Source: an uncultured virus (IMG/VR IMGVR_UViG_3300021247_000307) (taxonomy: Duplodnaviria; Heunggongvirae; Uroviricota; Caudoviricetes). From it: DNA of 37,640 bases. The translations under genes were made by a program, and so were the position numbers. Location of the stretch: the IMG/VR virus record IMGVR_UViG_3300021247_000307; one strand, written 5' to 3'. Below, one piece after another: positions 591 through 31,200 of this stretch; within the stretch, counting starts at the first letter, position 1; every line of letters starts with the position of its first letter. The notes beneath the pieces were generated by a model, which was given only the letters and a program-made list of their open reading frames with translations, searched no databases and had not been told where the DNA came from.

Positions 591-2354
591 ATGATAGAAA
601 AACTAAATGACTTAACACACGATTGCATATTAACATTCGATTCTACGATTAGGTCTTATGATTTTCTATTAATTGCAGATGTACATTTTGATAGTGTAAG
701 TTGTGATAGAGAGTTATTAAAAAAACATCTTGATGAAGTAGTAGAACGAAATGCTAAAGTATTAATCTTTGGAGATTTCTTTGATATAATGGGTGGTAAG
801 TTTGATAAGAGAAGTAGTAAAGGAGATTTAAGACCTGAATATAATACATCTAATTACATAGATAATGTTGTAGATGATGCTATAGATTTCTTATCTCCCT
901 ACAAAGAATATATAATTTTTATTAGTCCTGGAAATCATGAACTAAGTATTCTTAGATATCATGAAACAGATGTTATAAAAAGATTAGCTAAAGCGTTAGA
1001 TGCTGAAGTTGGTACTTACGGTGGATGGTTAAGAATGAGATATTCTTTTAAAGATGCAGGAAATAGAGGTTCATATAAAATAGCTTATAATCATGGCTAT
1101 GGTGGTGGTGGACCAGTTACTAAAGATGTTATACAGACTAATAGAAAAGCTGTATATCTTCCTGATGCTGATATAGTTATTAGTGGACATTGTTTTGATA
1201 CTGAAACAGAAATATTAACTACTAATGGTTGGATTACTTATAATAATATTACATTAGATACAGAAGTTGCTACAATGAATTTAGATAACAAACTAATGGA
1301 ATATCAAAAAGTTAATTCAATTCATACTTATGATGATTATACAGAACTTCAACATGTAAAATGTAAAGGAATTGATATAATGACTACAGATAAACATGGA
1401 ATGATTTATAAATCTTATAGACATGGTACTATACATAAGTGTGAAATGTCTGAATTTATAACTAAAAAAGAAGTAGAGATATTTAATTCTTGTGAAGGTT
1501 ATAATCAAACAACAGGTTTATTTGAAGATAAGTATTTATATTTAGCAGCATGGATTGTATCAGATGGTTCTATTACACAGAAAGCTATAAAATTTCATTT
1601 TAATAAAGAACGTAAAATTAATAGAGTAGAAGAATTATTAAATAAAGCTGATATAACTTATACTAAATCAATAAGTAAAAAAGGTAACACTAAATTGTAT
1701 ATTTCTGTAGAACAATCTACAAAGATATTAGAACATTTAGAATTAAAAGATAAGAACTTTTCTAAGTCATATTATTTACTAGATGCAAGACAATGTGATA
1801 TAGTATTAAATGAATATAGATATGCTGATGGGCATTCTACAGAAACACACGATTCTTATGTATTGTATGCTAAGAATGATATTAATTTGAATATACTACA
1901 ATCTATGTGTATTAAGACTAATAGAAAATCTACATTATATGATGAGTTAGAAAAAGGTAGATTGTTTAGATTAAATGTTAGTACTAAAAGTACTACTTTC
2001 ATGTCTAAAGTAAAACATGAAACTGTTGACTACAAAGGTAAAGTTTGGTGTGTTAATGTAGATAATGGTAGTCTTATAGTTAGAAGAAATGGTTGTGTAG
2101 CTGTAACACAAAACACTCACGACCGTTACATTTTTCCTATACCTAGAGAAAGATTTCTACAATCAGGAAAAATAGTACAAGATGAACAAATTCATTTAAA
2201 ACTAGGAAGTTATAAATATAGTTACAGTAAAGGAAATAGTTGGGAAAGACAAATGGGTCATCCACCAAAGAGTGACCCTGGAGTATGGATGACTATATAC
2301 TTAACAACTAAACATAATAGAGTAAAAAGAAAATTTGAACTAGCTGAAAACTAA
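591..2354 (+). CDS. Calcineurin-like metallophosphoesterase, intein-containing (about 279 aa after splicing)
   Basis: All five family motifs are present: DVH, GDFFD, GNHE, NHG, and GH/TH, the last split by the intein. Confidence 0.9.
   Translation: MIEKLNDLTHDCILTFDSTIRSYDFLLIADVHFDSVSCDRELLKKHLDEVVERNAKVLIFGDFFDIMGGKFDKRSSKGDLRPEYNTSNYIDNVVDDAIDFLSPYKEYIIFISPGNHELSILRYHETDVIKRLAKALDAEVGTYGGWLRMRYSFKDAGNRGSYKIAYNHGYGGGGPVTKDVIQTNRKAVYLPDADIVISGHCFDTETEILTTNGWITYNNITLDTEVATMNLDNKLMEYQKVNSIHTYDDYTELQHVKCKGIDIMTTDKHGMIYKSYRHGTIHKCEMSEFITKKEVEIFNSCEGYNQTTGLFEDKYLYLAAWIVSDGSITQKAIKFHFNKERKINRVEELLNKADITYTKSISKKGNTKLYISVEQSTKILEHLELKDKNFSKSYYLLDARQCDIVLNEYRYADGHSTETHDSYVLYAKNDINLNILQSMCIKTNRKSTLYDELEKGRLFRLNVSTKSTTFMSKVKHETVDYKGKVWCVNVDNGSLIVRRNGCVAVTQNTHDRYIFPIPRERFLQSGKIVQDEQIHLKLGSYKYSYSKGNSWERQMGHPPKSDPGVWMTIYLTTKHNRVKRKFELAEN
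1191..2114 (+). mobile_element. Intein (308 aa) with LAGLIDADG-type homing endonuclease region
   Basis: Starts CFDTETEILTTNGW (block A); TDKH (block B TxxH); YLAAWIVSDGS and EYRYADGH (LAGLIDADG-like); YKGKVWCVNV (block F); ends VAVTQN before Thr+1. Removing it restores SGH-THD. Confidence 0.92.
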
Positions 2355-2357
2355 GAT

Positions 2358-3170
2358 ATGCTAAACTTGACAGGAAGAACAACTGGAAACAAACTTAACA
2401 TTGAACAACTAAACATGTTCAAGAGTATTACTTATTATGATGATACACATACTTATTATAATAATGATACAGAACTATTTACAAGTGTAACATCAGTAAT
2501 TAAAAAATATCAACATGACTTCAATGAAGAATACTGGGCTAAGTATAAAGTACTTCAGAATCAAGGATTACAAATTAAAACTGATAAGAGCAATAATGTT
2601 CCTAAAGGATTTTACTTACTTGATTCCCAATTAGTACACTATAAAGATTTAAATGTCGATATTAACACAATGGTCGAAAGCTGGAAAGCTGGTTCTGATA
2701 CAAGTAAAACAAAAGGAACGAAGTATCATAAGTATTTGGAGAATGCTTGGAACAACAAGTATGAAACCCACGACAGGATTGAAGTTCTGGATAATATCAT
2801 CAAAGTGCTATCATCCCAATACATACCCATAAAGTTAGAATGGGTAGTAGCAGATTTTGATAGTAGAATTGCTGGACAATTAGATGGATTCTTTTATGAT
2901 ATTAAGAATGAAAAGTATGTTATACTAGATTATAAAACAGATAAAGAAATAAAATATTTTAATAGATTTGAAACTTTTATGCCACCATTAGAATTTTTAA
3001 GTGATTGTAATTACAATAAATATACATTACAACTAAATATGTATAAGCATTGTATAGAAAAATACTTAGATATTACTATTGGTAGTATGATTATAGTATG
3101 GATTAAACCTGATGGATTTGAATTAATTAATATTCCTGAATCTCAGGATTTAGTAAAAATGATATTATGA
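2358..3170 (+). CDS. PD-(D/E)XK nuclease, RecB/Cas4-like exonuclease family
   Basis: Motifs SVTSVI, GTKYHKYLE, LEWVV, AGQLDG, ILDYKT and YTLQLNMY (QxxxY). Confidence 0.88.
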   Translation: MLNLTGRTTGNKLNIEQLNMFKSITYYDDTHTYYNNDTELFTSVTSVIKKYQHDFNEEYWAKYKVLQNQGLQIKTDKSNNVPKGFYLLDSQLVHYKDLNVDINTMVESWKAGSDTSKTKGTKYHKYLENAWNNKYETHDRIEVLDNIIKVLSSQYIPIKLEWVVADFDSRIAGQLDGFFYDIKNEKYVILDYKTDKEIKYFNRFETFMPPLEFLSDCNYNKYTLQLNMYKHCIEKYLDITIGSMIIVWIKPDGFELINIPESQDLVKMIL

Positions 3171-3817
3171 AAATAGCTGAATTATTATCTACTATTCGTG
3201 TAACTATTAAAGAAATAACAGACGACAGTAAATATACTGATAGTTATTTATGGTCATTAATTGTACAAGCTAGAGCTACAGTATTAGGTAATAATATTAA
3301 AGGTAAATCATTTATATCAAGTTGGTCTAGTCATAGATTCTGTATAGAATTAGAATTAGTTAAAGCTGAAGATTGTTCTTGTATTCCTGATAATAGTTGT
3401 AAAGTATTAAGAAGTAAATATAAAATACCTAGACCATTAATAGGTAGATATAGAGATGCTATGCAAGTTAAGTTATTAGATGGAAGATTATTAGGAATGA
3501 TAGAACAATATCAACTAAAATCAGATTCACTAGACCCAATAAAAGGAGAAGCATTAAGATACTCAATCATTAATCAATACTTATACTTATGGAGAAGTAA
3601 AACTTTAAAGTGTATTTATGTTGATGGTATATGGGAGAATATATTAGATTGGCAAGATATACAATCACAAGAAGATTGTAATGATATTTATGAAATAGAA
3701 AGTGGTATTGGACAAAATGAAGTTACTGGAATAATGCAGATAATGGCTACACTATTACAATTACCACTATCAAGAAAAGATGATGACAGCGATGACAGAA
3801 ACCCAGAAATACGATAA
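3167..3817 (+). CDS. Probable tail ring / tail-tube protein (crAss-like)
   Basis: 216 aa, ATGA overlap with the upstream gene. N-terminal helices (DDSKYTDSYLWSLIVQARATVL) and CSC...CKVLRSKYKIPRP resemble crAss-like ring proteins as I recall them. Position upstream of the IHF-like and muzzle genes fits. Confidence 0.6.
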   Translation: MKIAELLSTIRVTIKEITDDSKYTDSYLWSLIVQARATVLGNNIKGKSFISSWSSHRFCIELELVKAEDCSCIPDNSCKVLRSKYKIPRPLIGRYRDAMQVKLLDGRLLGMIEQYQLKSDSLDPIKGEALRYSIINQYLYLWRSKTLKCIYVDGIWENILDWQDIQSQEDCNDIYEIESGIGQNEVTGIMQIMATLLQLPLSRKDDDSDDRNPEIR

Positions 3818-10500: not shown

Positions 10501-11118
10501 ATTAGTTTTCATAGCTATCATCCTAAGTATTTCTTTAATAGTTTTGATACTTTATTTAGTACAATAAATAGTAAGTTATACTCACACGATAGTAGAATAT
10601 ATAATGAGTTTTATGGTGTATTTAAAGATAGTATATTCGAGTATGTTATTAATGCTCCTACTACAGTTGATTTAGATGCTATTGATTATTATGCTGTAAC
10701 ACTAGACTGGGATAATGATACTAAGTCTTGGAAGAATGTAAACTATCCTACGTTTGATAGGTTTATGGTATATACTAAACAACAATCAACTGGACTACAA
10801 GAATTAATTCCTAAATCAGATTATAATATTGATTGGGATAATAGAAAGAAAACAGTAAGTAATAGAGAAAGAAATTATAGAATTAGTGCAATTAGAGATT
10901 TATCTACAGCTAGTCCTGTAATGAGTAGAGCATGGAATGATATAGAATCTAGTTATCCTATTGATGCTGTTGCAACTAACGTTAACTATAATGCATCACA
11001 ATGGAATCAAATATCCATAAAAGATAAGTATTTTTATGTAAGATTCTTTTTCAATGGAAAAGGAACTCGTATAATACTTGATATAATGAAATCTAAACAA
11101 CAGCTAAGTATATCATAA
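7591..11118 (+). CDS. Tail-stabilisation (muzzle; P22 gp10-like) protein, main C-terminal part
   Basis: GALPVGSYSVVIR, FQSDEIYAFGIQY...SPVFHIPGR, FPNRIIWS, LYIGTGDFLS, LGYDPQFKRLMV, SFVISYS...WISFHSYHP, KDKYFYVRF: recalled motifs of crAss-like muzzle proteins. Beta-rich; lacks the usual N-terminus. Confidence 0.8.
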   Translation: MSWNIDEFDLQRQIYVNAPNASVVNTGALPVGSYSVVIRIYDENLQLITQSDISQQVVLTGKQLVRKEAVTILLPGPNTPRFDTPLLNTDSSTGALNGEIFEEIDGGIISSKKGIKVTATSLPQDYPYAKIVIIAANVSNDKSAFELPALLSTNGIDYTVTSLDGASRVDLDSVYVDPVIYDTSEHIEIVDKRLIRANVKTRYYDYSDFQSYANNVEIKWVSKPYVENESSFQSDEIYAFGIQYQMSDGSFSPVFHIPGRAATPNDRVVDTLSPTETDAIGTLLQRWQVYSTASIDGTLGYYESQETYPLTKKCDNQYVFGDLANTPVRYHRMPMKNMVGMQNAIGINVNPKELPTNTIGWRVMVVERDSINRTVNDSGIITGVQESLYKEQRTVDYAVYGIASQVAAKPDALFKRGNFNPSLTNSISDTVYATLCVKELAGEGIRTDYISIPCVFDLDGVDTITTWYNEAKDDIILPNKRGKTKGNLFQKVKNEFLRIYVYPVIHAFTRLYNRNYNYSATSNNAIYQTVADTYYVNSYSKYEVGNEVYANQFQSNDVSFVKLKYPLNAPDIIANKSEQQLGYVLKKQATRPYASINSLQYKALTPTIYTTRDTVDYYNGDIYISRFRLTTFFLEDRDEATSTGVSTGLFILTGTLSALASAGRDRELYTVEYTEVLLESDYNLNYRVLGTKQNEVFNGFDLIVYKNKSYFQNLANYFFNKIGELDEGDRQSTQDDRLVRYGINETKEYYAYNKDLNRLFMGKTYFPLPANWNYCEDCSAKFPNRIIWSAASFSEDKSDFFQTYLANNFTSVGTSPITALNYSSNRLLVRTTKSMFVMSPNPQEINTDVSTLYIGTGDFLSIPPQEIRKVDYGFGGGKGTKDFIATEFGFVTVDDRTGQVFLFSEGMKELTDINSGCNQWFKEYLPTINGHILLGYDPQFKRLMVYKRDEFDKTENKSFVISYSFNYQTWISFHSYHPKYFFNSFDTLFSTINSKLYSHDSRIYNEFYGVFKDSIFEYVINAPTTVDLDAIDYYAVTLDWDNDTKSWKNVNYPTFDRFMVYTKQQSTGLQELIPKSDYNIDWDNRKKTVSNRERNYRISAIRDLSTASPVMSRAWNDIESSYPIDAVATNVNYNASQWNQISIKDKYFYVRFFFNGKGTRIILDIMKSKQQLSIS

Positions 11119-14111
11119 TGAAGAAGATAGCACAAGGTTTACCTCTAAAGAAATACATAGGTAACAAACATAAAGATGGAGGAATAATGGTTAACGCTTT
11201 AGGCAACAAGACTAAATACGTTAATAAAGCTGTAGCTGAAGTTGAAGGTGGAGAATATAATTTTAGATATAATCCTAATAATCCTAAAGATAACTACATA
11301 CTATCAGAACAATTAGGAATAGCTGGTATAGCTAAACAAGCAGATAGATTTAAAGGTAATAATAGAATAGATTATAATACAAGAACTAATCTACTTAACA
11401 AATCAATGAAGTTAAATGAGATGTTAAGAGTTCAACAAGAACAACAACAACCTATGCAAATGGCATTAGGTGGAGGATTAAATAATAATCCTTTTGATAA
11501 ACAACCACCAAAACAAAAAGATTCTGACTTTAGAAAAACTTATCAAAGCACTCCAATGAATGTTGCTAAGATGTTTGACCCTACAGGAATTAGTTCTTAT
11601 CCTGATGTAGCATATTCTATTGATGATTATAATAAAGGAAAAGGAAGTAAATCAGATATAGCTTTAAATGTATTAGGAGCATTACCTATTATTGGTAAAG
11701 CTAAAGGATTAATTACATTAGCTAAAGGAACAAGTAAAACTAAAAAAGGATTAAATACTATAACTAAACTTGGAGATTTAGCTGGAGATATTGAAAGATT
11801 TCCATTACAAACTGCAAAAGATTTAACTAATAATGCTACAAAACCTATAGCTAAATTGGTTAATAAATCAGCTACTAATCTTTTAAATTTTAATGATGTG
11901 ATAAGAAATAAAATAGTTCCACCACTTAATCCTAATCAATTTTCTACAAAATCAGCAACTAAATCAGATATGATTAATGCTGGAACAAGTGTTGTTAATA
12001 TAGGTAATTTAGGTTCTGATATAAATAGTATTTCAAAGAAACAATTTGGTGGAAAGTTAAAGAAATATAAAGATGGAGGATTTAATGATAGTGGACCTAT
12101 AGATGATAACATACAAAATTATTATAAAAATACTACAACTCGTGATGTTGTATCAACTCCAGGAAATGAGTTAACTAATGTTCCTATGCAACCAGTTGCA
12201 CCATTAGTAAGACCAAAATTAGATGTAAGTAAAGAAATGCAACAAGCACAAGTTGCTGGAGATAATCATGTTAAACAAAAGAAGAATAATTTTAAAGGAG
12301 CATTATCAGCAGTAAGTGGTGTTGCAAGTGCATTTGGTCCTATTGGACAAGGAGTAGGTGCTGCTATACAACTAGCTCCTTATGCTATTGATTTAGGAAA
12401 AGCTATGTTTGATAAAACATCAGTTCAAGATTTACAAACTCAAGGAAGTGCTATGAGATTACCAAATACAACTTATGCTAAACATGGTGGTAAACTAAAT
12501 GTTAAACCGTTACCTAAATTTCAAGATGGTGGAAAATCTAAAGAAATAAATCCATTTGATAAAGTTACACCATCAACTAAAGTTACAGGAACTATGTATC
12601 CTCTTAATAGAGTAGATGATATGAATAATGCATTTAATAGAAGAAATCCTAGTACAATAAGAGGATTAATTAATTCTGAACAAATCAACTTACAAGAACT
12701 TATAACTAATCCATTTAATATAACAGCAGACCCTTATAATATAAATCCTGAAGATAAAAAAGAAAAAAGAAAAATAACATCATCATTAGATGTACTTAAT
12801 CCTAAATCTGATATTAATAGAGCAAGAAGTTTCTATCAAACTCCATCTTATATAGGAGGTAATAAATATGAATATCCTTTTAATCCAGTAACTACAACTG
12901 ATAATAAAGATAATGCTGAAAAGAATAAAGGTAATACTGGAAGTGGTAAAGGAAATACTGGAAGTAAATCTACACCTACAACAAATACTACATCTACAAC
13001 TACATCAACTAATATGTTACCATCAAGAGGATTAATGTTACCAGGTTCTAGTAGTATAGTACAAGCAGCAAAAGCTAGATTTGATAAAGATAATCTTGAA
13101 AGAGAAAAAGAATACGATGCTTTAGTAGGTAATGCTCTTAGTAAATTTAATACAAAAGGAATAACAACACCTACTACAACAGAAACTACAGAAGTTCCTC
13201 AATCTGAATCAAGTAGATTATTTAAAGCTGGACAGAATAAACAAAAGTTATCAGAAGCATTAATGTATGGAATGGCAGCATTACCATCTGAACAAATAAA
13301 AACTATAACTCCTGATTATGGTAGAGGTGATGATGCTATGAGTAGAATGGGATTATCTACTGAACCAATTAGACAAGAAATGATGCAAGGTGCTAATAAA
13401 GCATTAGAGTTAACTCGTAGTCAAGTTGGTACTGCTGGACAATTACAATCAAGAGGTCAAAGTATTATGAGTAATGTTGGAAGTCAACTAGCACAATCTC
13501 AAATGCAACAACAACAATATCTTAATCAATTAAGAGGTGCATTAGCACAAAGAGAAGATACTAAAGCTAATGTATTAGCTCAAAGTGAATTAACTGCAAG
13601 AGAAGCTAAATCTGCTGAAAGAGCTGCTAAACTAGACCAATTAAATAATGCTATATCTCAAACATCAGCTATAGGTGCTGGAACTATGGAGCAAGCATCT
13701 AAAATGAGTACTATAGAAAATGAGAATGAAAGATTTAATAAACAACAAGAAAGATTATTAGATATATTTAATAAGTCTGGTAATTTTAAAGTAAGTTTTG
13801 ATAAAGATGGAAAAATAACATACGATTATGTTGGTAACACTCCTGCTCAATCAAATATTAAAGCAGTAGATTTATCTAAACAACTAGTTGCAAATAATGC
13901 TGCAAATAATGGAACTGGTACAAATCCAGTTTCCAATGTTGTAGTTCCAGCTGCTACAACAACAGGAAATACATATACTATAAAGAAAAATGATTCATTA
14001 TATCGTATTGCTGCAAATAATAAAATGACACTAAATGAATTATTAAAACTTAATCCTGGAATGAAAACTACATCAGTAATACAACCAGGACAAACTATAA
14101 AAATAAAATAA
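11118..14111 (+). CDS. Virion cargo/ejection protein with repeated xxGG motifs and C-terminal LysM
   Basis: GNKHKDGG...AEVEGGE N-terminal motif; repeated (K/M)xxxGG motifs; amphipathic Gly/Ala helices; Gln-rich coiled coil; LysM TYTIKKNDSLYRIA...LLKLNP...IQPGQTIKI at 13971-14108. TAATG coupling at both ends. Confidence 0.7.
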   Translation: MKKIAQGLPLKKYIGNKHKDGGIMVNALGNKTKYVNKAVAEVEGGEYNFRYNPNNPKDNYILSEQLGIAGIAKQADRFKGNNRIDYNTRTNLLNKSMKLNEMLRVQQEQQQPMQMALGGGLNNNPFDKQPPKQKDSDFRKTYQSTPMNVAKMFDPTGISSYPDVAYSIDDYNKGKGSKSDIALNVLGALPIIGKAKGLITLAKGTSKTKKGLNTITKLGDLAGDIERFPLQTAKDLTNNATKPIAKLVNKSATNLLNFNDVIRNKIVPPLNPNQFSTKSATKSDMINAGTSVVNIGNLGSDINSISKKQFGGKLKKYKDGGFNDSGPIDDNIQNYYKNTTTRDVVSTPGNELTNVPMQPVAPLVRPKLDVSKEMQQAQVAGDNHVKQKKNNFKGALSAVSGVASAFGPIGQGVGAAIQLAPYAIDLGKAMFDKTSVQDLQTQGSAMRLPNTTYAKHGGKLNVKPLPKFQDGGKSKEINPFDKVTPSTKVTGTMYPLNRVDDMNNAFNRRNPSTIRGLINSEQINLQELITNPFNITADPYNINPEDKKEKRKITSSLDVLNPKSDINRARSFYQTPSYIGGNKYEYPFNPVTTTDNKDNAEKNKGNTGSGKGNTGSKSTPTTNTTSTTTSTNMLPSRGLMLPGSSSIVQAAKARFDKDNLEREKEYDALVGNALSKFNTKGITTPTTTETTEVPQSESSRLFKAGQNKQKLSEALMYGMAALPSEQIKTITPDYGRGDDAMSRMGLSTEPIRQEMMQGANKALELTRSQVGTAGQLQSRGQSIMSNVGSQLAQSQMQQQQYLNQLRGALAQREDTKANVLAQSELTAREAKSAERAAKLDQLNNAISQTSAIGAGTMEQASKMSTIENENERFNKQQERLLDIFNKSGNFKVSFDKDGKITYDYVGNTPAQSNIKAVDLSKQLVANNAANNGTGTNPVSNVVVPAATTTGNTYTIKKNDSLYRIAANNKMTLNELLKLNPGMKTTSVIQPGQTIKIK

Positions 14112-16215: not shown

Positions 16216-19200
16216 ATGGCAGCACCTTCAGTAATAGAAAACGATAAAGGAACTCCTACATATATTAGTCCTACAGCAAAAGATAATTTTCAATTACCTT
16301 CTACTGTTAAACGTATTCCTGTTAATATAGGAACTAGTATTGAACCAAGTATGCCATTAAGTTCTGAATACTTAGAAGGTTATGCTTTTAATAGATTAGG
16401 ATTAAATCCTAAAACTCCTGAACAATATCAATATCAAGCACAATCTTCTTGGGATGCTTTTAAGAATGGATTAACTCAATTTGGTGCTGAAGCTATTCTT
16501 GGTACAGTAAAATCTGCTGCTACATTATTAGATTTACCGCAATATGTAAATATTGCAATGAATAAAGAAAAAGAATTTAATACAGTATTTGGTAGTTATA
16601 TAGATGAGTTAGCTGAAGGAGTTAGAGAAAGAAATCCTGTATTTGGTACTGAAGAAGTTGAGTTAGCTAATCCTAAATTCTGGGCATCATTACTTCCTGA
16701 TTTAGGAACTACTGTATCATTATTTGTTCCTACTGGAGCTGCTGTAAAAGGATTATCATTAATTACTAAAGGTATAATAGGTGCTAATAAAGCTGGAGGT
16801 TTAGCTGGTAAAGTAGCTAACCACATGTTAAAGAATAGAGAAACTTACAAAGGAGTTGGTGCTGCAATGATTTCAAGAACTATGGAATCAAGTCTTGAAG
16901 CTGAAGGAACACTAAAAGAATCTTATGAGAAATATCTATCTGAAGGATATGGTGATGAACAAGCTAAACAAATGGCTGGTGAAGATGCTAGAAATACTTA
17001 TGTAGCTAACTTACCATTAGTATTACTAGATGCTGTACAATATACTTCATTGTATAAAGGAATGTTTAATCCATTAAGAGGTGCTAGAGCAGCAGAAAGA
17101 GCATTAGCAAATACTACAAGTAATGCTATACTTAAAGCTGCAAGAGGTGTGTATAAAGTTGGTAAAGCATTATCTGGACCAGCAATGGAAGCTGGAGAAG
17201 AACTATTACAGTTTGGTATTCAGAAAGAAGCTAGTAAAACAGATTCATCTGTTAATACTTTATTAAATGCTATATCTAATCTTCCTAATTATGTATCAGA
17301 CCCAGAAGCACAGAAAGCTATGATTAGTGGTGCATTTGGTGGTGGTGTATTTGAAGGATTAAGTTATGCACAACGTAAACTATTTAAACAAGATGCTGAA
17401 ATAGATAATGATTTAGAAGCTGGTAGAGTTGCTGGAGCGCATTATAAATCTATGAAAACATTCATGGATATTATAGATGAAGATAGATTAAAAGAAGAAA
17501 AGTTAATAAATGAAGGTAAATTAAATCAATATATACCTAAAGCTGATAGTTTTTTAGAAGCTGCTAAACTTGATACTGATTCTTTTACTCCAGAAGATAT
17601 TGATAATTTAGTTAAATTAAAAGATGATTATTATACTAAATTAAAAGATTATACTAACAAAGGATTTAGTGGTGATATGCTCAACAAAATAGTTGAGGAA
17701 GATATGAAAGCTACTATATTTAGTAATTTAGAAGAAAAGTTAAAAGTTACTAAACCAAGTTCACCACAACTTACAGATAAAGAATTAAGACTTAAAGCAT
17801 TAAATTTACTAGAAGAAATGGAATCTGGTAATACTAATTTAATGAAGTCTAGTAAATTAAAATCTGCTGAAATAATTAAAGAAGTTAGAAAAGAAAAAGC
17901 ATTATTATTAGCAGAAATGCAAGCAGATTCTACTTTCGACCCAGTAAAATTAAATCGTAAAATTAAACCTGATTCTAAATATAGAGAAGCATTAACTGTA
18001 CAATCTAATATTGAAACTGCTAAAATACTAGCTAATATTGCTAATAATAAATTAGAAGAATATACTAATCCTGATAAACTTATTGATGATATCGAGATTG
18101 ATAAGATTATAGATAACTATGAAAATTTAGTTGACTATAAAGATAAGTTTACAAACTTTGATGACTATTTAGATTATTTAGATAAACTAAGTACTGAAGG
18201 TGATGAAGATTTAAATCTTGTAATTAATACTATTTATGATGATTTAATAGAAGATGCTCTAGCAAATAAAGAAGAAATAAATCCTAAATTAATAGCTAAA
18301 GTAAAAGATACAGATTTACTTGAATTTAATAAAAATAATTTTGCTGCTGACCCTAATGCTGAATATAATTCTGTAGTATCAACACCAATAAATGCTGAAG
18401 AATCTAATATATATCTTACTGGTAAAAAAGATATTGCATCAGGTTTAGTATTAGAAGATAAAAAAAGTAAAAAGAAAATATTAGTTCTAAGTAAAGATAA
18501 AAAAGGAATAAGAGTATTAAAAGATAATAAAGTTGAAGTAGTAAGTGAAGATTCACTTAATAATACTACAATGCTTGGAACTTATAGAACTGCTGATGTT
18601 AATAATACTAAATATATTGTAACAAATAAGGCTTTAATTAATGTTGCTGATGGTAGTATAAAAACTAATTTCAACAACTTAGCAGATGCTATAGAATTTA
18701 GAAGAGCTACATTAGGTATATTTAGTACATCATCTATTGCTAAAATAGAAGAAGATAGAAAGAATGAATTACAAAATAGTGATTTAAAAATTAGAGATGC
18801 TGAAAAGTTATATCCTAAAGGAGATATTATATTTATTACTACAGATGATAAAGTAACTATACATAAAAAGACATTAGGAATAAAACCATCAGAATTAAAA
18901 GAAGATAGTTTATATTCTTTTAAGTTTGTAAAGAATGGTAAAGAAGTTGATAGAGTATTTAGATATGATATTAAAGAAGGTTTAGTAAAACAAATTAAGA
19001 CTAATGGTACATTAATTGATGACCCTAATTATAAAAGAATAAATGATAGAGAGAATTATATTCAATATCAAGAATTAGATTATGCTGATAAAGCTGAAAG
19101 AGATTTTAAAAACATAAGTCTTATAAATAAAAAGTATGATGCTAAATATGTTGATGAAGTTGCTAATGGTAATATAAGTATTGAAAGTGCTTTAAAGATA

Positions 19201-22200
19201 TTACCTAAATTTAATACTAAACCTCATGATGCTGTAATTAAAGCATTAGAGGATAAATTAGATTTAAATGAAAACTATGATATTAGAACAGAATTAAATA
19301 AGAATTTAAAAGATGTAGATAGTAATTCAAAAACAGTAAATACATTATTACTAGAAAGAGAAAGATTAACTGCTGAAGGATTAGAATTATTAGAAAGTTT
19401 TACTCCAGAAGAATTAGAAAAAGAATTTAAAGATATTATATCAGATGATTATGAACCAATAGTAATTCCTGAAGGAAAAGCTATATCTATTACATTAAAC
19501 GATGGAAGTAAACTACAACTTACAAGTGGTACTGGAATTGTATTCTTGAGAAATAAGAAAACTAATAAGATTAAATTAAGTGTATTAAGTTTTGAAAATA
19601 CAGATAATGAATTAATAAGATTATCTATAGGACAAGCATTTGTAGAAAAAGTATTAGGCATTCCAGTTTATGATGCTAGTGTAGTAGTAATGGATGGAAC
19701 TAGTGTTACTGAAACAGATGTATCATTATTAAGTATATTTACTTATGATAATGTTCAAATGCCTTACAATTCAGGATATGATTATATTAATGCAAATACT
19801 GGATTATCAGATAAAGATAGTAAGATAGAAGATTTAAAAAATAAGTATGAAACATTAAATAATTATATTAAAGATTTAATAAATAAAGGACAAACTACTG
19901 TAGAACAATTAGCTAATGTAATTAAAACAGGATTATCAGCTATTGATAAGAATACAGATACTAATCTTACTAATGAAAGAAATAAACTTAATGAACAATA
20001 TAGATTACTTACATCAAATTCTAACATTAAAGATTTAGTTGTAGTAAATAAAAGTGATTTAACTAAAGCTAGACAAATAAGTCTTGATTTTACAGGTGAT
20101 ACTATTCAAAATGATAAAGTTGCTGATATAGAAAGAAGAAGACAAGAAGAATTAAATAAAGAAACTCCCATAAAAAATGAAAATATAACAGTAGATTTTG
20201 GCGGAGGTGTGTCTGTTAAATATCAAGTTATTACTTATAAAGATGGTAGTGTAAAAATTTCTACAGTTTCTGAAAAATCTAAAAGATATAGTAGACTATC
20301 TGATGAAGCTTTTAAAGACTATGCAAAAATAGATTTTGAATCAGATGCAAAAGGTATTACAAAAATAGAGGTGGTTAAAGACGATTATAATGATAAAGAA
20401 TCTCAAGAAATCCAGGCTGCTAAAGAAAAAACAATCAATGCTAAATATGATGCAGAATTAGCTGCTTTAGAAGAAGCTAAATCAAAAATAAAAAATAAAT
20501 ATAAAGGTAAATTTATTTATGCTACTCCAGGTTCAGGTAAAACAACTATAGCAAAAGAGTTAGAAGATATTATTGATACAGATGATTTAATGCTAAATGT
20601 AATGTTTGAATTACATCCTGAATTTGTTAGACTTGATAATGAATCTACACAAGAATTTATATTTAGATATGCAAAAGATTATAATAAAGATGAAATAGAT
20701 AAAATAGTTTTAGGTAGAGTAATGAATTTACTTGCAGAAGGTAAGACAGTACTTACTGGTACAAGAGCTTTTTTACCTAAAGTTAATTTTAGTTTTAGTA
20801 TTGATAATGAAAATGTAAGAAATAGATTAAAAGATAAGTTAGATAGTTTTAAAGCAGATGAAGCAATTAATCTTGCTAAAGAAATTAATGATTTAAGAAC
20901 TGAATTACTTGATAAAACAACTAAATCAAAAGAAAAAAATGCAAGACTAAAAGAAACTGATATAAATAAAAATTCATTCTTTGTAATGGATGGAAAAGTT
21001 AATCAGTATGCAGGATTTAATGTATTAATAGGAAAACAAGAAGTTCTAGCTAATGTTGATGCTAATAATAATGTTACTGTAGATGGTAAACTTCCAACAA
21101 AGAATAATATAGTTAAGATATTAAATAAATATAATGAAATAGATATTGATGATTATTACAGTAAACCTCCATTAGTATTAAATAATGAATTAAAAGGTTC
21201 TGTAATATACATGGATGAAGTAACAATGGATTTATTTTTTAATGGTAATAAAGAATTTGAAGATGCTGTAGATATAGAAAATATAAAAAGTAGTCTTAGA
21301 GATATAGGAGTTTATTTTTATGATGATATATTAAATGCTAATCCTGATACAGTAGATACTTTTATAAAAGAAATATTAGCTAATAATCAAGCTGTAATAA
21401 AAGTATTAAATACTGAGAATCCTGAACTAATAGATGGAGTTAAATCTAAAATGTTTAGAGTAAATCCTAAAACATTATTAGATTTTACATTAGATAAATA
21501 TAATATAGATAATGTAAAAGATGCTCAACCTTATGTAAAACAAGTTAATGATTTTACTACATCATTAAAAACTACTCCATCAAGTGAAGTAAGTAATTAT
21601 ACTGATTTAGTAGGTAGTTTATTTACTACTACACCTTTTACTGAAATATCAGATAGTTTTGCAAGATTAAAAGTATTATTAAATACAAAACTTCAAAGAT
21701 ATGTAAATACTTATAAAGAATATACATTAGAACCTGTACTTGAAAAGATAGAAGTTGATATAGATATTAATACTATTGAAGAAGAAGATACTTACATGCA
21801 AAGTGATTTGTATGAAACACAACCTGTAAAACCTGATAAAGCATATCCTACTTTTGCTACTGAAGCAAAGGCATCAGAACAAGCAGAAAACTGGTTAAAA
21901 TTATTTAATCAATATAAAGATACAAATTATACTATTGAAGATTTAAGTAATAAATATCTTAAAGCTACAGTAAATTCTGTTGTAGAATATTTATATATAG
22001 ATGCTAATACTATAATAGGTTTTATTAATATAAAAGGTGAAGATGTTCCTATTGGATTATTAGATACTCTTGAAAGAGTTAGAGAAAAGAAAATTAGATA
22101 TAATACAACAAATATTGCTCCAGCATATCTTGAAAAACTATGGAATATTATAAGAGAACAGAATTTAAGTGCTGGAGCTATTGTACAAACTGATACTACA

Positions 22201-25200
22201 AATTTTGTAGTAAGTAATATTCACTATAATGGTTTACATTCACAAAGAACAAATATAGGTAACTTAAGAAAACATGCTAAGTTTTCAACATTTGCAATAG
22301 TTAAATTAAGAGCTGACAACTTTGAAGTTGTTTATGGTAATGAATCTATATCTAGTACTGATATATTAAATTATAATGCAGTTAAATCTAAAATTGGTAA
22401 TAATGCTAGTCACTATTATATTACTGTAAAAGTATCAACTAATAAATATAAATTATTTCCAATTAGAATAGATGATTTAAGTTATGATGAAAATGATATA
22501 AAAGCAAATATTAATAAGATTAAAAATGATGAAAAGTATGTTAAAGATAATTTTTTTCATTTTGGTTTAATAAATAAATTAGCTAAATCATTAAAAGGTA
22601 ATCCAGATATTGATAATATATTAAAAGATGCTATATTAAAAGATCATGCTTTAAAAAATGTAGTAACTAAAGGAAAAGGATTTTGGTCAAATCCTAGTGA
22701 TGTTAATTCTTTAAATGTTAATATAGGAGTTAATGGTTATCTTAATACTAACTTTATAATTAATAGTAAAGAAAAAGTTGCTATAAAACCAACAGTTAGA
22801 AGAAAACCACCTCCAGCAAAACGTTCAAGAGCTAAAGGATTAGTAACAAGAAAGTTATCAAGAGAGAATGCTTTAAATAATCTTAAAAGAATATTACCTG
22901 AAGGTTATGATGTTAGATTCTATGAAAATCTTATTAAAGAAGGTAATGATTATTTATGGGGTTATGTATCAAAGAATATAATAGGACTATCAGACCAAGG
23001 TAGAATTGGTGAAGAATATCATGAAGCATTTCACGTTGTATTCAATGCTTTTATTAATCAAACAGAAAGAGAAAGATTATTAGGTCATATAAAGAATTAC
23101 TATAAATCAAGACTGGATAATAGTTATACAGATGAACAACTAAATGACCCAGACTTTGCTGAAGAATTACTAGCTGATTTGTATAGAGATTTTGCATTAG
23201 CATACGATGAACAAGGTAATAAAAGTTTATTAGACTGGATAAAAGATATTCCTAGTGCTATTATAAGATTCTTTAAAAGATTATTTAATCTTGAAACAAG
23301 TATTCAAAGAGATAAATCTAAACTAGATAAATTCTTTAAGTCTATTAGTACTGGTAAATTCACTAATAGAAATGCAGAATTTATAAATTCTTTTAAAGCT
23401 AGTAAAGCTACAACTTATAAAAATGGAACTGAAAAACAACAGATAGTAAATATGTTAAATAGTTTATCAGCACAAATGAATGTGTATGATTTAGCTAAAC
23501 CTGAAACTATTATTAATGATGATTTTCTTGAACCTGAAAAAAGTGTATTAACTAATTTAAATAATAAAAACTCATTAGTTAATGTATTTATTAATGAATT
23601 AAATAAAAAGTTACAGTTATCAGAAGATGAAGGTGGTTTTATAATGAATGATGAAAAGTTAGATGTAATTAGAAGAGTAGTAAGAGGATTAAGATTTGAT
23701 TTAGATGTTGAAAATATTGATAATGTATTAACTATTATTAAATTAAAAGAAACTCCTAAGTTTGGAGAAATACCATCTAGTATAATGGCAACATTTGCTG
23801 AACATGGTTATATGATTAATGATATTGATATAGAAAATGTATCAGAAATAGATTTTGATGATAGTGATGAAAAAAACTTACAAGATGCTTCTGAAGATGA
23901 TCCAGCTTTCGATGAAGAAGAACCTAATCAAAAAGAAAACTATCAAATAAAGAATTATATAAATCCACCACATCTTAAAATAAGAGGTGTAGCTAAATCA
24001 TTTTTATCTTTAATACGAAAAGATGAAGTTGATATGTTTGGATTTAATATTAACTTTAACTATAGTCCTCAAGAAGCTGCTAATAAATTCTTATTAGCAT
24101 TTGGAAATACTGATGACCCTATTCAATTAAAAGAAAAGATAGCTTTTAGAAATGAAACAGAAGAAAATAAACCAGAAGAGTTTAGAGATAATTTCTATAT
24201 AGATTTGTATGAACTTATAGAAGTACATGAAGTAATGCCAAAAGAAAAAGTGTATAACTCATTATGGGATACACTTGGTAAATTAGCTAAAGCTGATTTC
24301 TATAATGTAGTTGTATCTTCAGTTGGAAGTGATGTTAAGATTTCAAGAACAATGGCTAACCTTGATGATTTAAAATATAAGATTAAAAATAAGTTATTTA
24401 ATTTAGTTGATATACAAGAAAAGTTTGCAGAACAACGTAGTAATCTTCCTAGTAATGCTAATCTTGTTATACAATTTGTTAATACTATTAATATTGAAGA
24501 ATTAAATGCAGCATCAGAATTTGATGATTTATCTAATACCAATAAAAAAGCTATAGTAGCATTAATGAATTATATAGGATATAATGATTCATTTGAAAAT
24601 GAGAATTATAGTAGTATATACTCATTAAATTATAAAGGTGATTTAGTACCATTTTTAGCATTAGCTAAAAGACTTACTCCTGTAAATAAAGCTGTTGAGA
24701 TATATAAAAATAAATCTTTAATAGATATAATAAGTTCTAAATTACCATCTGATATATCTAGTACACATAAAACTGTAGATGGTAAATTATACTACGAATG
24801 GCAAGTTCCTAATGCTGTAAATAGAACTATTAAAGAATTAAATAAACCTGCTAATGAAAGAGAAATAATAAAAGATAGATTGTATGCTGATTTACCATTA
24901 ATGAATACAAACTATACTTTTAAGTATGAAGAAAGCAATGGTACAATAGATAAACTTACTGGTAAAAATAAAGAAGTATCAAACTATACAGCAAGAGATT
25001 TATTAACTGAAATAATAATAAGTGCGCAAGAAGGAAGTTTTGTAACTCCAGTATTGTCAGATTCTGGAAGACAAGTATATGTTGGAGGTATTAATTTTCT
25101 TAGTTATGATGATGCTTTAGCTGATTTAGTAAAATTAGCACTTATAGAAAATAATAGAATATTAACAAAAGGTGATAAATTTTTTAAGAATTATAATCTT

Positions 25201-28200
25201 AATCAAAAAGAATCATATATATTTCCAACTATAGATAGAAAACTGTTTCCAGAAGAAATAGTTACTTTTGAAGATTATACACCAAAAAATTATACTCAAA
25301 AGTATGGTGATTTAAAGAATGAAATAGAGAAAGTTATTAGTCAAAGAGCAGAAGAATTTAATAAAACATTGGCTAAAGAATTTATATACTTAGATAAAAG
25401 TATAATAACTAATACTATATTAACATTACCAAAAGAAAGTGAAACACAGCAACAAATAAATGAAAAAACATACAATAATGCTAAAACATTATATGCTAAT
25501 CATATACTAAATCATACACAATTAACTTATATATTATTAGGAGACCCTGCTTACTATAAGAACTATGAAGATTTAGTTAAAAGGTCTAAACAAATGATAT
25601 CTCCATCATCAATAGCTAATATATACAATACATTTGATATAAAAGTAAGTAGTAGAAATTATTATGATACAGATTTTACTGAAGATTTAATTTCAAGAAT
25701 ATCAGTATCTCAAGATATGAGAGTATCTATTAAAGCTGACGTTGAACGTGAATCTTTAAATAATGAACAATTAAAAGCATTAGGATTAGAAAAAGAATAT
25801 GAAAAGAATAATCTTACAGATGCTCAATCTTATATAGATGATATTGCTTACAGAGATAGATTAATTGCTGAAGGTACTTGGACACAATTACATCAGGATT
25901 ATATGGATATGTCAATGAATGGATTTCCAGCATCAAAACTTACTATAGAAAAAGCAAAACAATCTGGTAAATCAATAGAAGATATAAAGAAACAAAGTCC
26001 TGTAGAAGTTGTTAAACCTTTCTACTTTAGTATGATTAACTATGAAAAAAATGGAAGAGATTATTTAGTTCCATTTCAAAAGAAAGATTCAGAGTTTAAA
26101 ATATCACCATTCTACGGATTAAAGACTATCAATGGTATAAAGAATAGTATGTATAATCCTTATTACTATAAGTTATTAACTGAAGAATTTGGTTATACTA
26201 TAGAACAAGAAGTTATAGTAAATGGTGAAGTTACTAAAAAACATATTATAGGATTTGATAAAGAAAATAGAAAAGCTGATGTAGTATCATTTGAATCAGC
26301 TATTAAAGTATTTACTGATAAAAACCATATACAAAAAGTAGACCAACCATTTGATGAAACTAAAGTAATAACAGTACCATTTAAGTATTGGGGAAGACAA
26401 ATGGAAACTCCTAAAGGACATTTTAATAAAAATGTATCTCTTGGAACACAAATAAGAAAGTTAATTGTATCAAGAATTACTGGAAAAGATGTAACAATTA
26501 AAAGACAAAATGGAACTCAATCAACACCTAATGAATTATTAAAAGAATATAATAAATTATTAGTAGAAGATATTAAAAGAGGTGAAAAAAGATTTAGAAA
26601 ATCTATTGAAACTAATGGAGCTATTGATGGTAAAAAGATATTAAATCTTATTAAAGCTGAATTTTTAAGTAGAAAGAAACCACTACAATACTTAGAGGCA
26701 TTAGAGTTATTAAATAGTGGTGCTAGTTATAATGAATTAATTACTAGAATACCTATATCACATCCATTTCATTCACTACAAATACAAACTATACTAAATA
26801 GTTTACATCGTAATAAAGTTAGTAAGTTAAAGTTTAAGAATGGATTTAAATTAGCTAACGCATCTAGTGTAGGATTTGAAAGACAACCAAAAATAGTATT
26901 TAATAATCCTGCTAATCCTGAAGAAGGTATTAAACATTTTGAAGTCTATGCTCCAATACATGATACTAGATTGTATGAGTTTGTAGATGAAGTAAGTGGA
27001 TTAATTCCTAAAGAAAGAATGAGTGAGATAGAAACTAAATATCCAGGAATCTTAGATGGTGTAGTATATCGTATTCCTACTGAAGATAAATACTCCATGT
27101 ATAAAACTAAGATAATAGGATTTGTAGTAGATGAAGTAGGTGCTATATTTATGCCTGATGTAGCTACAACTCGTTCAGGATTAGATTTTGATATAGATAA
27201 AATGTTTGGTTTCTTTAAAGATGGTACAGAAACAACAATAGATGGTAAGAAATATATAGGACTTACTCCAGAACAATATGCTAAAAGAAGTAAGTATGCT
27301 ATAGATACTTTTGAATTTAATGAGGATTATAATGATTATCAAGCTCAAGTTATATCTGATAATGCTAAACTTGATATTATGATGGATGTATTATCATCAG
27401 AATATACTGTAATACCACAAATGAAACCTGGAGGATTTGAAGCAATGGAAGAACATGCTTTAGAGTTAGAATATATAACTATATTAAAAGAAGGTCACAC
27501 AAATAATTTAGGTGTAAAAGAATTATATGAATATGAAGAATTTAAAGAAAAATTAGATGATTTTAAACTATTAAGTAAATCAGTTAAACGTGAATTAGTA
27601 AAATCAAAAACAGAATTTTGGAATATAGTAAATATATCTAATACTATAAACAGAATGAATCTTGGTAAACAAGTATTAGGTCTTGCAGCTAATTATAATG
27701 CAATGTCTGCTGTTGTTGAAAGTAAAACTATAATTGAAAGACCTGGAAGAGTTATAAAAGGAGATATTAAACAAGCTATAACATATAATGGAAATAATTT
27801 ATTATTAAATCCAACATCATTATTTGATTTAGATAATAACTTAAAGTATGAAAATACTTCTATGCTTGTTGCAGCTTCTGCTGATAATGGTAAAACTCCA
27901 ACGTTAGAACCATTAGGATATGATTTAAAATCTTTTAACTTATACATGGCATTAACTGGATATGGATTTCCTAGAAGAATAATTGAAAAGTTATTAGTTA
28001 TAAATAATATACCTGATATTAAAGATTTTATGGATAACGTAAGAACTGAAAAGTTAGATACTGATATAACAGAAGATAAATTAGAATCTGTTTTATTTAA
28101 TCATAAAGCTGTTGAAGTAGAATCTATATTATATACATTAAATCATTTATTAAATTCAAAAAGAACTAAAGCTGTTGGTAAAAATATGTCACAGTTGTTA

Positions 28201-31200
28201 AAGAATTTAAAGATTGGTGATAGTGGATTACAGAGTAATACTTTTGATAACATGATGACTTCATTAGATTATAAAGAATATATTAAAAAATTAGAAAATA
28301 AAGCTAATTATTTTAATATTATAACAGATGAAGAATCATTTAATTATGAATCAACAAAGAAAATGTTTGAAGGATTAGATATTATTACAGATATAACTAA
28401 AATTCCTGTAGAATTTGGTGCTGTACTTAGAAAGTATAAAATAAAACCTGAATATTATCTTGATTTTTATAGTGCCGTATATGCTTATATTACTAGAAAT
28501 GAATATGAAGCATTTATGTCACCACAACAAGTAACAGACCCTAAACTTAAAGATAAAAAAGTACAATCTATATTAAATTCTGTTAATTACTTAAAGGATT
28601 TTAAAGAAAATTTTCCAGATAATCTATTTCTTAAACAATTAAGTCTTAATGATAATAATAAAATTATATTCACAGAACAAAGAAAGAAAGATGATTCATT
28701 GATTAATACTACAATGAATGATTTTGAAAACTTATTAAATTCTGATGAAGTAGTTGAAGTAAAAGATAAATATGATGGTAAATTTGTAAATATTAAAGTA
28801 TCTGATTTCGCTAATGATTTAGCTTATTATAGTATACAGGCTTATGGATTTGGTTATAACTATGAATCATTCTCTTATATTATACCTCCAGCATATTATG
28901 ATAATCATAGAGATTATGTAGAAACTGTAGATAAAAAGATGAAAGAATATATTGCTAATAACAATAGGTTTAATAATATATTTATCGAGTATGCTTTAAA
29001 TAATCCTAAGAATATAGAAGATGTAGGAACTCTACCTTTAGATTTAAGTCAAATGGTAAATAATTTAGTTGAATTTGGTTCTTTTGCTTATCAACCTTTA
29101 GATAATGGTAAATCATCTTTTAATAATATATTTTTGTTTAATAATAAAAGTTTTATAAAACTTGAAAATGAAATATTTGAAAATAAAACTCCTGATTTAA
29201 TATATAGAGTAGGTGATGAAACTATTGTAAAAGTATTTGAAAAGAATAATGAAAGTTTTTTTATTATAGCTAATATAAATAAACCAGAAAATATTGATTT
29301 TAAAACATTAAGTAATACTTTAGAAGGAGTAACTAAATCACATTATCCTAATGAACCTAGAAGTAAACAAAATAGATTAAAAGATTATGGATTGTTTACA
29401 CAAGAGTTTTATTTAAAATCATTTAATAAAGAAGGTATAAAGTTTGAACCAAAAGCAGCTAAAGAAATAGTTGAAAAAGGTACTGATACTCCAGAACTAG
29501 CTACTGTATTAAATACAGAAGTTTTATCTATAACTAATATATCGGAAGGTAAATCAGAGATAATTAGATTATTATCTGATATAAGTAAAACTACTGCTTC
29601 AAGTATTGAAGATGTAATTAATGGTAACTTTAAATATGATAATAAGTTTTTAACTAACTATACTAATGTTACATTTGATAAAACAACTAATGACATAACT
29701 ATTACTGAAAGAAATTATTTAGAACAAGAAGATCGACAAACATTATCAGATGTTATTCCAATGTTAAAGGAAATCTTAAATGATTATAATAAGAATAAAC
29801 AAGTTGAAGTAGAAACTTCTACTCAACAATCTGAAGTAATTACACCTCAAGTTAATCAAGATAAAATTGTTACTTACACACCAGTAGGTAAAACACAACA
29901 AACATATACTATTCGTGGTAGTCAAATATTTAATAAAGACGGTATTGAAGTATTTAAAGAAGATAGTAGAGACCGTAATAAGATATTTGCAAATCTCGCA
30001 ATACAAGAAAAGAGAGCTGTTATAGTTACTTGGAAAGATAACAAGTATGTAGTTAATAACAATAATAAAATCATATCTGTTAAAACTGGTGATATGATGA
30101 AATGGAGTCCTGAAAATGGAGATTATAAAGGAATTATAGCTGAAGCAAATAAATTATTTAAATCTCAACAACCTGAATCCAAAACTGAAGTACAATTATT
30201 ATCTAATAATAACAATAAAATATTAGTAAATAATGTAGATTATGATAAAATAAAATCAATATTAAATAATATAAACATTAGTACATTAGATAATTTATCA
30301 TGGTTTACTCCTAAAATTATAAAAAATTATACTGGAGATATAATAAAAGGAACTTATGAGAAAGCTATTTTTGAAACTAAAAAAGAAACTTTAATTAGAA
30401 TTATAAATGAATTAGAATCATTAAAAGGTATAAATAATGAATTAGATTCATCTTTAGATTATTTAATATCTAAAATTGTTGAAGATGTAAAATTAAATTA
30501 TATTGTAGATAATTATAAATTACCTAAAAATTATACTCTTAAAGATTTTAAAGATATAATACAAACTATAAGATTTACTATAAAACATAATTTTAGTTAT
30601 GCAAAAGAATTTAATGATAAGATAAAATACTTATTAGATAATATTACTATAAATCAAGTTAAATCTCAACAATCTGAATTTCAAACTGAAATAAATATTT
30701 ATGCTGGTACTAACGAGAATGCTGAATTAAGTAATTTTTATATTAGACCTTTTGAATTATCTAAAAATTTATTAGATTTTTTAAATAAACAAGGAAGTGA
30801 TTATTCTAATATTAATTATAAATCTGTAGAACAAGCTTTTCAAAATATTAAAGTATCTTATAATAATACAGGATTTAATGATACTTTAGATAAAGATATA
30901 CTTTCTACTACAGATGGAAGAGAATTAAGAAGATTAGGACAGAAAATAGATTTAGATGTAACTAAATGGAATAAAGATTCTTCATATATAATGAAAGAAT
31001 TAATGTTACAATCTTTTAGAAAAAATCCAGATGCTCTTGCTAAATTATTAGCTACAGGTAATGCTACTCTTACACATAAATATAATGGAGTAGAACAAGA
31101 TAATGGTAGATTCTCTAAAATACTTATGGAAGTTAGAGATGAATTAAGAGGAACTACACAACAAGATACAAATGATTACGAAACTGGTAATGGATTTAAT

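Follow-up and report, generated by a model that had tools for sequence, protein, structure and literature searches.

The question raised by this locus is what a NADAR domain, known from enzymes that remove ADP-ribose, does at the end of a giant phage protein that also holds a virion RNA polymerase. The window (the whole stretch of DNA that was analysed, 37,640 nucleotides, one strand of the IMG/VR record IMGVR_UViG_3300021247_000307 from an uncultured virus of Caudoviricetes) contains a giant open reading frame (ORF), a single open frame under translation table 11 encoding 5001 amino acids (aa) (16216..31221, + strand; protein P0002). Its product is a virion RNA polymerase protein of the crAss type bearing additional modules, and the last ~160 residues before its C-terminal tail form the NADAR domain (aa 4823-4980; 30682..31155, + strand). 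As a rule, phages synthesise their enzymes against host defences once they have entered; where a defence marks the incoming DNA immediately, such enzymes come too late. A ready-made ADP-ribose remover on the first polymerase touching the genome would close this early-entry gap. An earlier, sequence-only reading of the stretch had proposed such a pre-made eraser, with DarT1 as the opponent. Our preferred reading, held at a probability of about 0.5, is that a catalytically competent His-type NADAR is delivered with the polymerase and removes base-linked ADP-ribose.

The identity of the domain was established from Pfam, PHROG, a profile search of PDB, an AlphaFold2 (AF2) model and Foldseek. The Pfam profile NADAR PF08719 scores 55.0-55.4 bits against a gathering cut-off of 35.1 (E = 1.1e-14 to 1.5e-14), the alignment spanning profile positions 8-123 of 163, and PHROG 1017 is matched with E = 3.4e-18. 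Single-sequence phmmer of the domain against PDB retrieved no NADAR (best E = 0.28, an unrelated protein); a profile of 25 sequences, comprising the window domain and 24 short relatives (alignment A1), matched E. coli YbiA (2B3W, 6.3e-29) and the Phytophthora NADAR with ADP-ribose (8BAU, 4.2e-19). The AF2 model has a mean pLDDT of 87.4 and a pTM of 0.81, and its only significant Foldseek matches are the same two structures (8BAU, E = 1.2e-6, TM 0.61; 2B3W, E = 1.7e-6, TM 0.63/0.70; probability 1.00 for both), the third match having E = 0.5. Thus, aa 4823-4980 are almost certainly a genuine NADAR domain with a YbiA-like alpha-helical core.

All the motifs on which the NADAR/YbiA signature had originally been recognised are present in the + frame of the giant ORF, in agreement with Pfam, the PDB profile and the fold: INIYAGT (30691-30711), LSNFY (30727-30741), SVEQAFQNIK (30823-30852), LRRLGQK (30925-30945), LLATGNATLTH (31045-31077), QDNGRF (31096-31113) and MEVRDELR (31126-31149). 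The profile envelope is slightly wider than the initially proposed boundaries (30691-31149, that is aa 4826-4978). By PADLOC, the segment 30652-31218 also weakly matches PDC-M42C, a candidate anti-phage system protein (E = 1.6e-7); judging from this match, NADAR-like proteins may serve inside host defence candidates too.

The fusion of the domain to a polymerase is likewise correct at the ORF level, as the NADAR and the polymerase core lie in one uninterrupted frame of 5001 codons. The core, recognised by tblastn and a hidden Markov model (HMM), occupies aa 3033-3769 (25312..27522, + strand) and includes the motif DFDID at aa 3657-3661 (27184-27198). By tblastn, residues ~3088-3589 match the 'putative RNA polymerase' of crAss001 (1e-18). 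The core HMM, built from aa 3300-3800 and homologues among the giant proteins, matches crAss001 gp50 (3.6e-89) and phi14:2 gp66 (E = 2.5e-61), in the latter over residues 1030-1512, which span the catalytic DFDID at residue 1361. Direct blastp against gp66 yields 4e-6, and single-sequence phmmer of the polymerase region against PDB yielded nothing. Judged by these alignments, the giant ORF holds a crAss-type virion RNA polymerase core of the gp66 family.

For polymerases of this family, virion presence and host entry are known from phi14:2 and crAss001 only. In the passages cited, gp66 of phi14:2 is described as packaged, as entering the cell and as transcribing the early genes, with a strong preference for single-stranded DNA (ssDNA) in vitro (10.1101/2020.03.07.982082), and mass spectrometry detected gp47, gp49 and gp50 of crAss001 in virions, where the model has them as cargo leaving before the DNA, partly unfolded (PMC10172136). 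From gp66 and the crAss001 cargo, the delivery of a ready-made eraser, as proposed in the sequence-only reading, may fairly be expected of the window protein.

The fusion is not rare. When aa 4800-5001 were used as a query against a set of 5.8 billion proteins, restricted to proteins of 2750-8752 aa, 302 giant proteins with a NADAR were retrieved at E <= 0.001 among 632 candidates; the per-giant counts given here and below refer to the best 120 of the 302, the window's own protein included. An iterative HMM search found the polymerase core in the same chain in 116 of these 120 (no core match in P0016, P0033, P0039 and P0091). The NADAR follows the core in 100 proteins and precedes it in 16, and it lies at most 60 residues from the C-terminus in 28 of the 120. 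At least 267 IMG/VR contigs carry a relative, and the NADAR frame remains open for at least 1000 codons upstream in 69 of the 80 IMG/VR loci kept. In five loci (L014, L015, L017, L021 and L079) the frame is broken into pieces of 40-72 codons by table 11 stops; this may reflect the recoding of stop codons, as known from some crAss-like phages (PMC7886860).

The companions of the NADAR vary. According to Pfam matches counted by hand (accurate to one or two), the 120 giants include 38 with an SF1 helicase (AAA_30/PIF1), 24 with DUF1848, 20 with DUF7831, 14 with an AlkB-like 2OG oxygenase, 12 with ART-PolyVal, two with the SLOG-family domain cpYpsA and two with RNase H; re-scanning of ten giants confirmed the companion domains and their positions. 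In the window's own giant protein, the NADAR is the only effector named by Pfam.

A literature search combining NADAR or DUF1768 with crAss-like phages found no paper describing the fusion, although figure 3 of PMC7886860, on the domains of the transcription block, and the supplements of that study, which lay outside the search, may show DUF1768. In its text, that study speaks of 'several large, multidomain proteins' in the transcription block and leaves NADAR unnamed (Yutin et al. 2021, PMC7886860). Iyer et al. 2022 expect frequent virion packaging of NADAR proteins, call the phage ones 'typically standalone' and make no mention of crAss (PMC9503650). The window domain is an ordinary and well-conserved representative of a large class, His-type NADARs in crAss virion polymerase proteins, which is visible in databases but unpublished.

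The active site is preserved throughout this class. Ser4839 (30730-30732), Glu4872 (30829-30831) and Lys4879 (30850-30852) make up the conserved substrate-channel set (Ser69, Glu87 and Lys94 of SCO5665; Glu43 and Lys50 of 8BAU). The last two have a spacing of seven residues; their counterparts are Glu43 and Lys50 in 8BAU and Glu36 and Lys43 in T4 AdfN. In the profile alignment His4954 (31075-31077) falls on the catalytic Glu125 of 8BAU. Thus, of the checks proposed in the sequence-only reading, both the Pfam search and the alignment of catalytic residues favour an intact NADAR. In the published work, the Glu and Lys of 8BAU bind the distal ribose and the pyrophosphate (PMC11543638, PMC12945103), both residues are required in NADARs (PMC11543638, PMC11257639), and mutation of Glu36/Lys43 in T4 AdfN abolishes counter-defence (PMC11257639). 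Among the 120 aligned giants, the Ser of LSNF, the Glu, the His and Arg4974 are each invariant (120/120), the Lys is retained in 119 and Asp4962 (31099-31101) in 115. As the Ser, Glu, His and Lys are nearly invariant despite an identity of only 41-93% across the giant homologues in this domain, selection for catalysis is indicated.

It had been suggested that the segment THKYNGVEQDNG, standing where E...D..WG is usual, could mean altered activity or specificity. However, published work gives a His in place of Glu125 as the hallmark of phage NADARs, and these are active on G-ADPr, that is guanine-linked ADP-ribose (PMC11543638, PMC11125620, PMC12945103); the segment is hence a known state and not decay. 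The rest of the segment lacks the Trp, and here we observed two principal forms of the loop after the His. The first, H-x-QD-K-x-K-W, is found in 83 of the 120 giants; the second, H-K-[YF]-x-G-x-E-QD-x-G-R-F-S, lacks Trp, is that of the window and is found in 29. The remaining loops have Trp without QD (four), QD without Trp (three) or could not be parsed by the pattern (one). As both forms are conserved and QD-x-G-R-F-S is kept in 29 of the 120, the Trp-less loop is a subtype under selection and not a product of decay. Our guess is that Arg4965 takes the place of the loop Trp at the pyrophosphate.

These observations allow for the following sequence of events. The giant protein would be synthesised late and loaded into the particle as cargo, and it would be driven into the cell before the DNA or together with it, the NADAR, a His-type ADP-ribosyl glycohydrolase predicted to be active, thereby being present before any phage gene is read. 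It would then strip ADP-ribose from bases, the best precedent being the N2 of guanine, on single-stranded nucleic acid, presumably the template of the polymerase and/or the first transcripts, and the marks left by a host ADP-ribosyltransferase defence would be undone. The reading is favoured, first, by the conserved active site together with the uniform activity of the assayed families: all four NADAR families tested, the His-type enzyme of T4 included, remove G-ADPr from both ssDNA and RNA (PMC12945103, PMC11125620). Second, a preference for ssDNA is common to the polymerase and the known DNA ADP-ribosyltransferases. Third, the AlkB-like oxygenase, SF1 helicase and RNase H found in the same chain in relatives are enzymes of nucleic-acid templates. 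Finally, the NADAR has repeatedly been joined to the cargo chain irrespective of position. The literature claims made in the sequence-only reading agree with the cited sources: NADARs remove ADP-ribose from guanine (PMC11543638), and the stand-alone phage NADAR AdfN (gp30.3) counters DarTG1 (PMC11257639).

A more specific version of the preferred reading would be a direct-reversal repair coupled to transcription, where the NADAR clears ADP-ribosylated template bases ahead of the polymerase or at the stalled enzyme, relatives swapping in AlkB-like, RNase H, helicase or other modules. We consider this version unlikely as it stands; if true, the particle would contain a modular, polymerase-borne kit for template cleaning, and such a coupling of RNA polymerase to base repair has not been described before.

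Several points weigh against the preferred reading. In one study T4 AdfN did not rescue DarT1 toxicity (PMC11125620) and in another it requires modified DNA (PMC11257639), hence the in-cell specificity is narrow. The sequence link to AdfN is itself tenuous: the window NADAR does not match PF08010, the gp30.3/AdfN family, even at E <= 10, its relatives reach 26-35 bits, below the cut-off of 36, and membership of the T4 gp30.3/AdfN family was rejected, the crAss NADAR HMM giving no match to T4 gp30.3 with default filters and 8.1 bits with the filters off. As cargo partly unfolds to pass the tail (PMC10172136), the NADAR domain must refold after entry. Phage NADARs have been argued to act mostly on soluble ADP-ribose derivatives (Iyer et al., PMC9503650), and a late action, within the cell that produces the particles, is an alternative. 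The last group of adverse points comes from the distribution of DarT.

We surveyed a sample of 401 genomes, some perhaps incomplete, of the phylum to which G001, a metagenome-assembled genome titled Flavobacteriales, belongs; this is the presumed phylum of the host, and it may not be that of the host of this phage. DarT (PF14487) was found in 34 genomes, although the reach of this profile to DarT1 is unvalidated and the control genomes gave 0, so DarT1 may escape it. NADAR was also found in 34. The two occur together in four genomes (G074, G098, G170 and G324), on different contigs or 240 kb apart, and none of the 401 has a DarT-NADAR (DarTG1) pair. Each of the five best DarT genes stands beside a macro-domain gene, and their five genomes lack NADAR. 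The pairs, DarT followed by the macro-domain gene, are G285:C92:5664-6685, G085:C24:8313-9334, G333:C108:816-1838, G131:C1:4081390-4082457, G090:C116:8870-9873 and G090:C160:6235-7272; by their gene content, the checked pairs are of the DarTG2 type. Thymine-linked ADP-ribose, the product of this type, is not removed by the NADARs tested (PMC11125620). Thus, DarT1 as the target, one element of the sequence-only reading, is weakened both by the absence of DarT-NADAR pairs from the 401 genomes and by the macro-domain partners of the five checked DarT genes, whereas the removal of ADP-ribose in general is kept. The target may instead come from another transferase, one directed at guanine or cytosine, or may consist of adducts on RNA or of soluble derivatives. 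If it is not DarT1, the question becomes which host ADP-ribosyltransferase makes the adduct.

The domain can also be compared with the NADAR families by their traits. The trait of the phage family, a His in place of the catalytic Glu of the last strand, is present in all 120 giants. In DarG1 (the BC4488 family) the catalytic position is occupied by Asp, whereas the window domain and all 120 homologues have His. DarG1 also has an adjacent DarT1 gene; among the ORFs of the window there is no ART (ADP-ribosyltransferase) or DarT match, and the gene stands in a virion block.

If the substrate is soluble, the NADAR would destroy molecules derived from ADP-ribose, such as immune signals or toxic products of NAD+ breakdown, and so blunt a signalling defence at entry. 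Iyer et al. 2022 argue for soluble targets of the NADAR, Macro, SLOG and Nudix domains of phages, with predicted virion packaging (PMC9503650), and cpYpsA or DUF7831 directly precedes the NADAR in close relatives (P0004 and P0010). However, all assayed NADAR families act on base-linked ADP-ribose, in DNA and in RNA (PMC12945103, PMC11125620), the literature passages covered contain no assay in which a NADAR was given a signalling molecule, and in many relatives the NADAR is paired with AlkB-like, helicase or RNase H modules. We regard a soluble target as somewhat unlikely.

Alternatively, the NADAR could be the partner of an ADP-ribosyltransferase borne by the phage, limiting or reversing ADP-ribosylation by the phage itself, for instance to make the cargo or the phage DNA self-immune. 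ART-PolyVal (PF18760) does share a chain with the NADAR in 12 of the 120 giants by hand count, confirmed in P0038 and P0090, but most NADAR-bearing giants have no ART, and Pfam and PADLOC detected none in the giant protein, in the following 2058-aa protein or in the eleven upstream ORFs (37.6 kb of a contig of ~99.6 kb); for this phage such a partnership is improbable. We give similarly little credence to the suggestion that the NADAR acts at a late stage in the producing cell, where replicated DNA or transcripts would be cleaned prior to packaging, with the link to the polymerase an accident of domain accretion. The location of the giant gene in the late virion block and the action of DarT-type defences during replication (PMC11543638) fit such a role, yet a free-standing gene would serve it equally, whereas the NADAR joined the polymerase chain at different positions (100 after the core, 16 before), and in cr131_1 and cr126_1 it is found on other giants in or beside the same gene block, which suggests co-packaging. 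It is very improbable that the domain has lost catalysis and serves as a structural module or spacer: the loop after the His does lack the Trp that docking puts at the pyrophosphate (PMC12945103) and Pfam aligns only part of the profile, but the Ser, Glu, His and Arg4974 never vary among the 120 homologues, the Lys is kept in 119 of them, the Trp-less loop is itself conserved, and the whole domain folds with high confidence in the AF2 model.

Whether the NADAR stays attached to the polymerase may depend on another module of the chain. A zincin-like module at aa 2216-2383 (22861..23364, + strand), with the HExxH motif HEAFH located in the translation at aa 2269-2273, is present in 99 of the 120 giant homologues by iterative HMM; it has no Pfam match, MPTase-PolyVal included, and its HMM does not match phi14:2 gp66 or crAss001 gp50. 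By its motif, this module is a possible processing peptidase and could free the NADAR from the chain; a release role for peptidases has been proposed in polyvalent proteins (PMC5512222). An HExxH at residue 245 of phi14:2 gp65 looks unrelated to it.

Between the polymerase core and the NADAR no Pfam match worth naming was obtained at E <= 10, and no usable match in the protein atlas. This stretch includes a mobile beta-rich module of ~105 residues (aa 4550-4654; 29863..30177, + strand), found in eight of the 120 giants, and a helical segment directly before the NADAR (aa 4669-4822; 30220..30681, + strand), which is shared with one other giant only (P0011 of the 120) and there, too, directly precedes the NADAR. 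The beta-rich module lies within ~170 residues of the NADAR in five of its eight giants: in P0067 and P0097 the two adjoin directly, in P0025 and P0110 they are 16-42 residues apart, and in the window the 154 residues of the helical segment lie between them. Its AF2 model (pLDDT 87.5) consists of two beta-beta-beta-alpha units, that is, an internal duplication, and matches no known fold significantly (lowest Foldseek E = 0.075; highest VIA Z = 5.0, within noise). WWE domains, which bind ADP-ribose, were considered for this module and rejected as too weak (Foldseek E = 0.1-0.3, TM <= 0.37).

The NADAR is followed by a tail of 21 residues and the stop codon (31156..31221, + strand), and Cys4999 in this tail (31210-31212) is the only cysteine among the 5001 residues. 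A Cys falls within the last six residues in 115 of the 120 giants, against about 1% expected, and a terminal Cys is also present in phi14:2 gp67 and gp66, crAss001 gp47, cr130_1 gp79 and cr131_1 gp48. The next protein, of 2058 aa, has its only Cys at residue 4 (31461-31463), and two upstream proteins (997 and 700 aa) have none. A weak P-loop of the AAA_18 type (PF13238, E = 3.8e-4, 21.4 bits, below the cut-off of 29.4) at aa 1434-1520 (20515..20775, + strand) is a tentative assignment, made with a Walker-A-like GSGKT visible in the translation.

The surroundings of the giant ORF are those of a crassvirus virion block. The window strand is very AT-rich (24-33% GC), its long ORFs all run in the same direction, and a megablast search of the phage collection with 20 kb found no relative at the nucleotide level. 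Upstream are crassvirus tail genes; the crassvirus-specific families matched there are CrAss_Ring_2 (tail ring protein 2), crAss_MUZ (the muzzle protein) and Gp80, and several crAss-type virion PHROGs are matched by genes of the window. Downstream is the gene of the 2058-aa protein (31452..37628, + strand), a homologue of phi14:2 gp65, the virion protein associated with the RNA polymerase (blastp 6.7e-18), which also matches PHROG 37651, virion structural protein (2.4e-17). The Cys-free cargo-block protein of 997 aa (11118-14111) has a C-terminal LysM peptidoglycan-binding domain (E = 3.1e-13) and weak matches to endolysin PHROGs, and by these matches may be a wall-binding ejection protein. 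Directly 5' of the tail ring gene, positions 591-3170 encode a metallophosphatase or SbcD-like 'DNA repair exonuclease' (587 aa) and an exonuclease (270 aa).

No phages are more abundant in the human gut than the Crassvirales, and the fusion hence bears on how they persist. Its presence in hundreds of phages, at varying positions and with varying companions, identifies the polymerase as a platform for swappable effectors and offers a set of testable enzymes.

Among the known systems, the closest to the core of the window protein are phi14:2 gp66 (PDB 6VR4) and crAss001 gp50, which share with it the homologous core with DFDID and a cysteine in the C-terminal region; with phi14:2 the gene order is shared as well, a gp65-like protein being encoded downstream. 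Unlike the window protein, gp66 (2180 aa) and gp50 (2412 aa) have neither a NADAR nor a match to the zincin-like module, and the window protein is more than twice as long. As both lack it, the NADAR is an accretion on the polymerase.

The closest NADARs in the phage collection, with 33-38% identity, belong to the GenBank Crassvirales cr130_1, cr131_1 and cr126_1, and differ in their setting. All three are embedded in giant proteins, which in cr130_1 and cr131_1 clearly belong to the giant virion gene block. In cr130_1 gp79 (5801 aa) the domain is near the C-terminus; in cr131_1 gp48 (1401 aa) it is in the middle of a protein encoded by a separate gene between two giants; and in cr126_1 gp003 (2402 aa, annotated as a 'DUF1768 domain-containing protein') it is at the N-terminus. 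T4 AdfN resembles the window domain in the NADAR fold, in the Glu and Lys seven residues apart, in the His for the catalytic Glu and in being phage-encoded, and is likewise thought to clean ADP-ribose off nucleic acid (PMC11257639, PMC11125620). It differs in being a free early protein of ~150 aa, whereas the window domain ends a virion protein of 5001 aa, in the loop after the His, and in a sequence likeness that is marginal (8 bits, filters off).

The architecture as a whole is best compared with the polyvalent proteins (Iyer et al. 2017, PMC5512222; 2022, PMC9503650). NADAR, AlkB and crAss have 0 occurrences in the main text of the 2017 paper (PMC5512222), and the window protein has no Pfam match to MPTase-PolyVal. 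Of the defining combination of an effector chain with a peptidase, we find an HExxH, without a Pfam match, in 99 of the 120 giants, and ART-PolyVal and other effectors in relatives. Polyvalent proteins are giant virion-associated chains with swappable effectors, a metallopeptidase-like module and a predicted role at entry, and the giants may share this plan, the scaffold here being an RNA polymerase.

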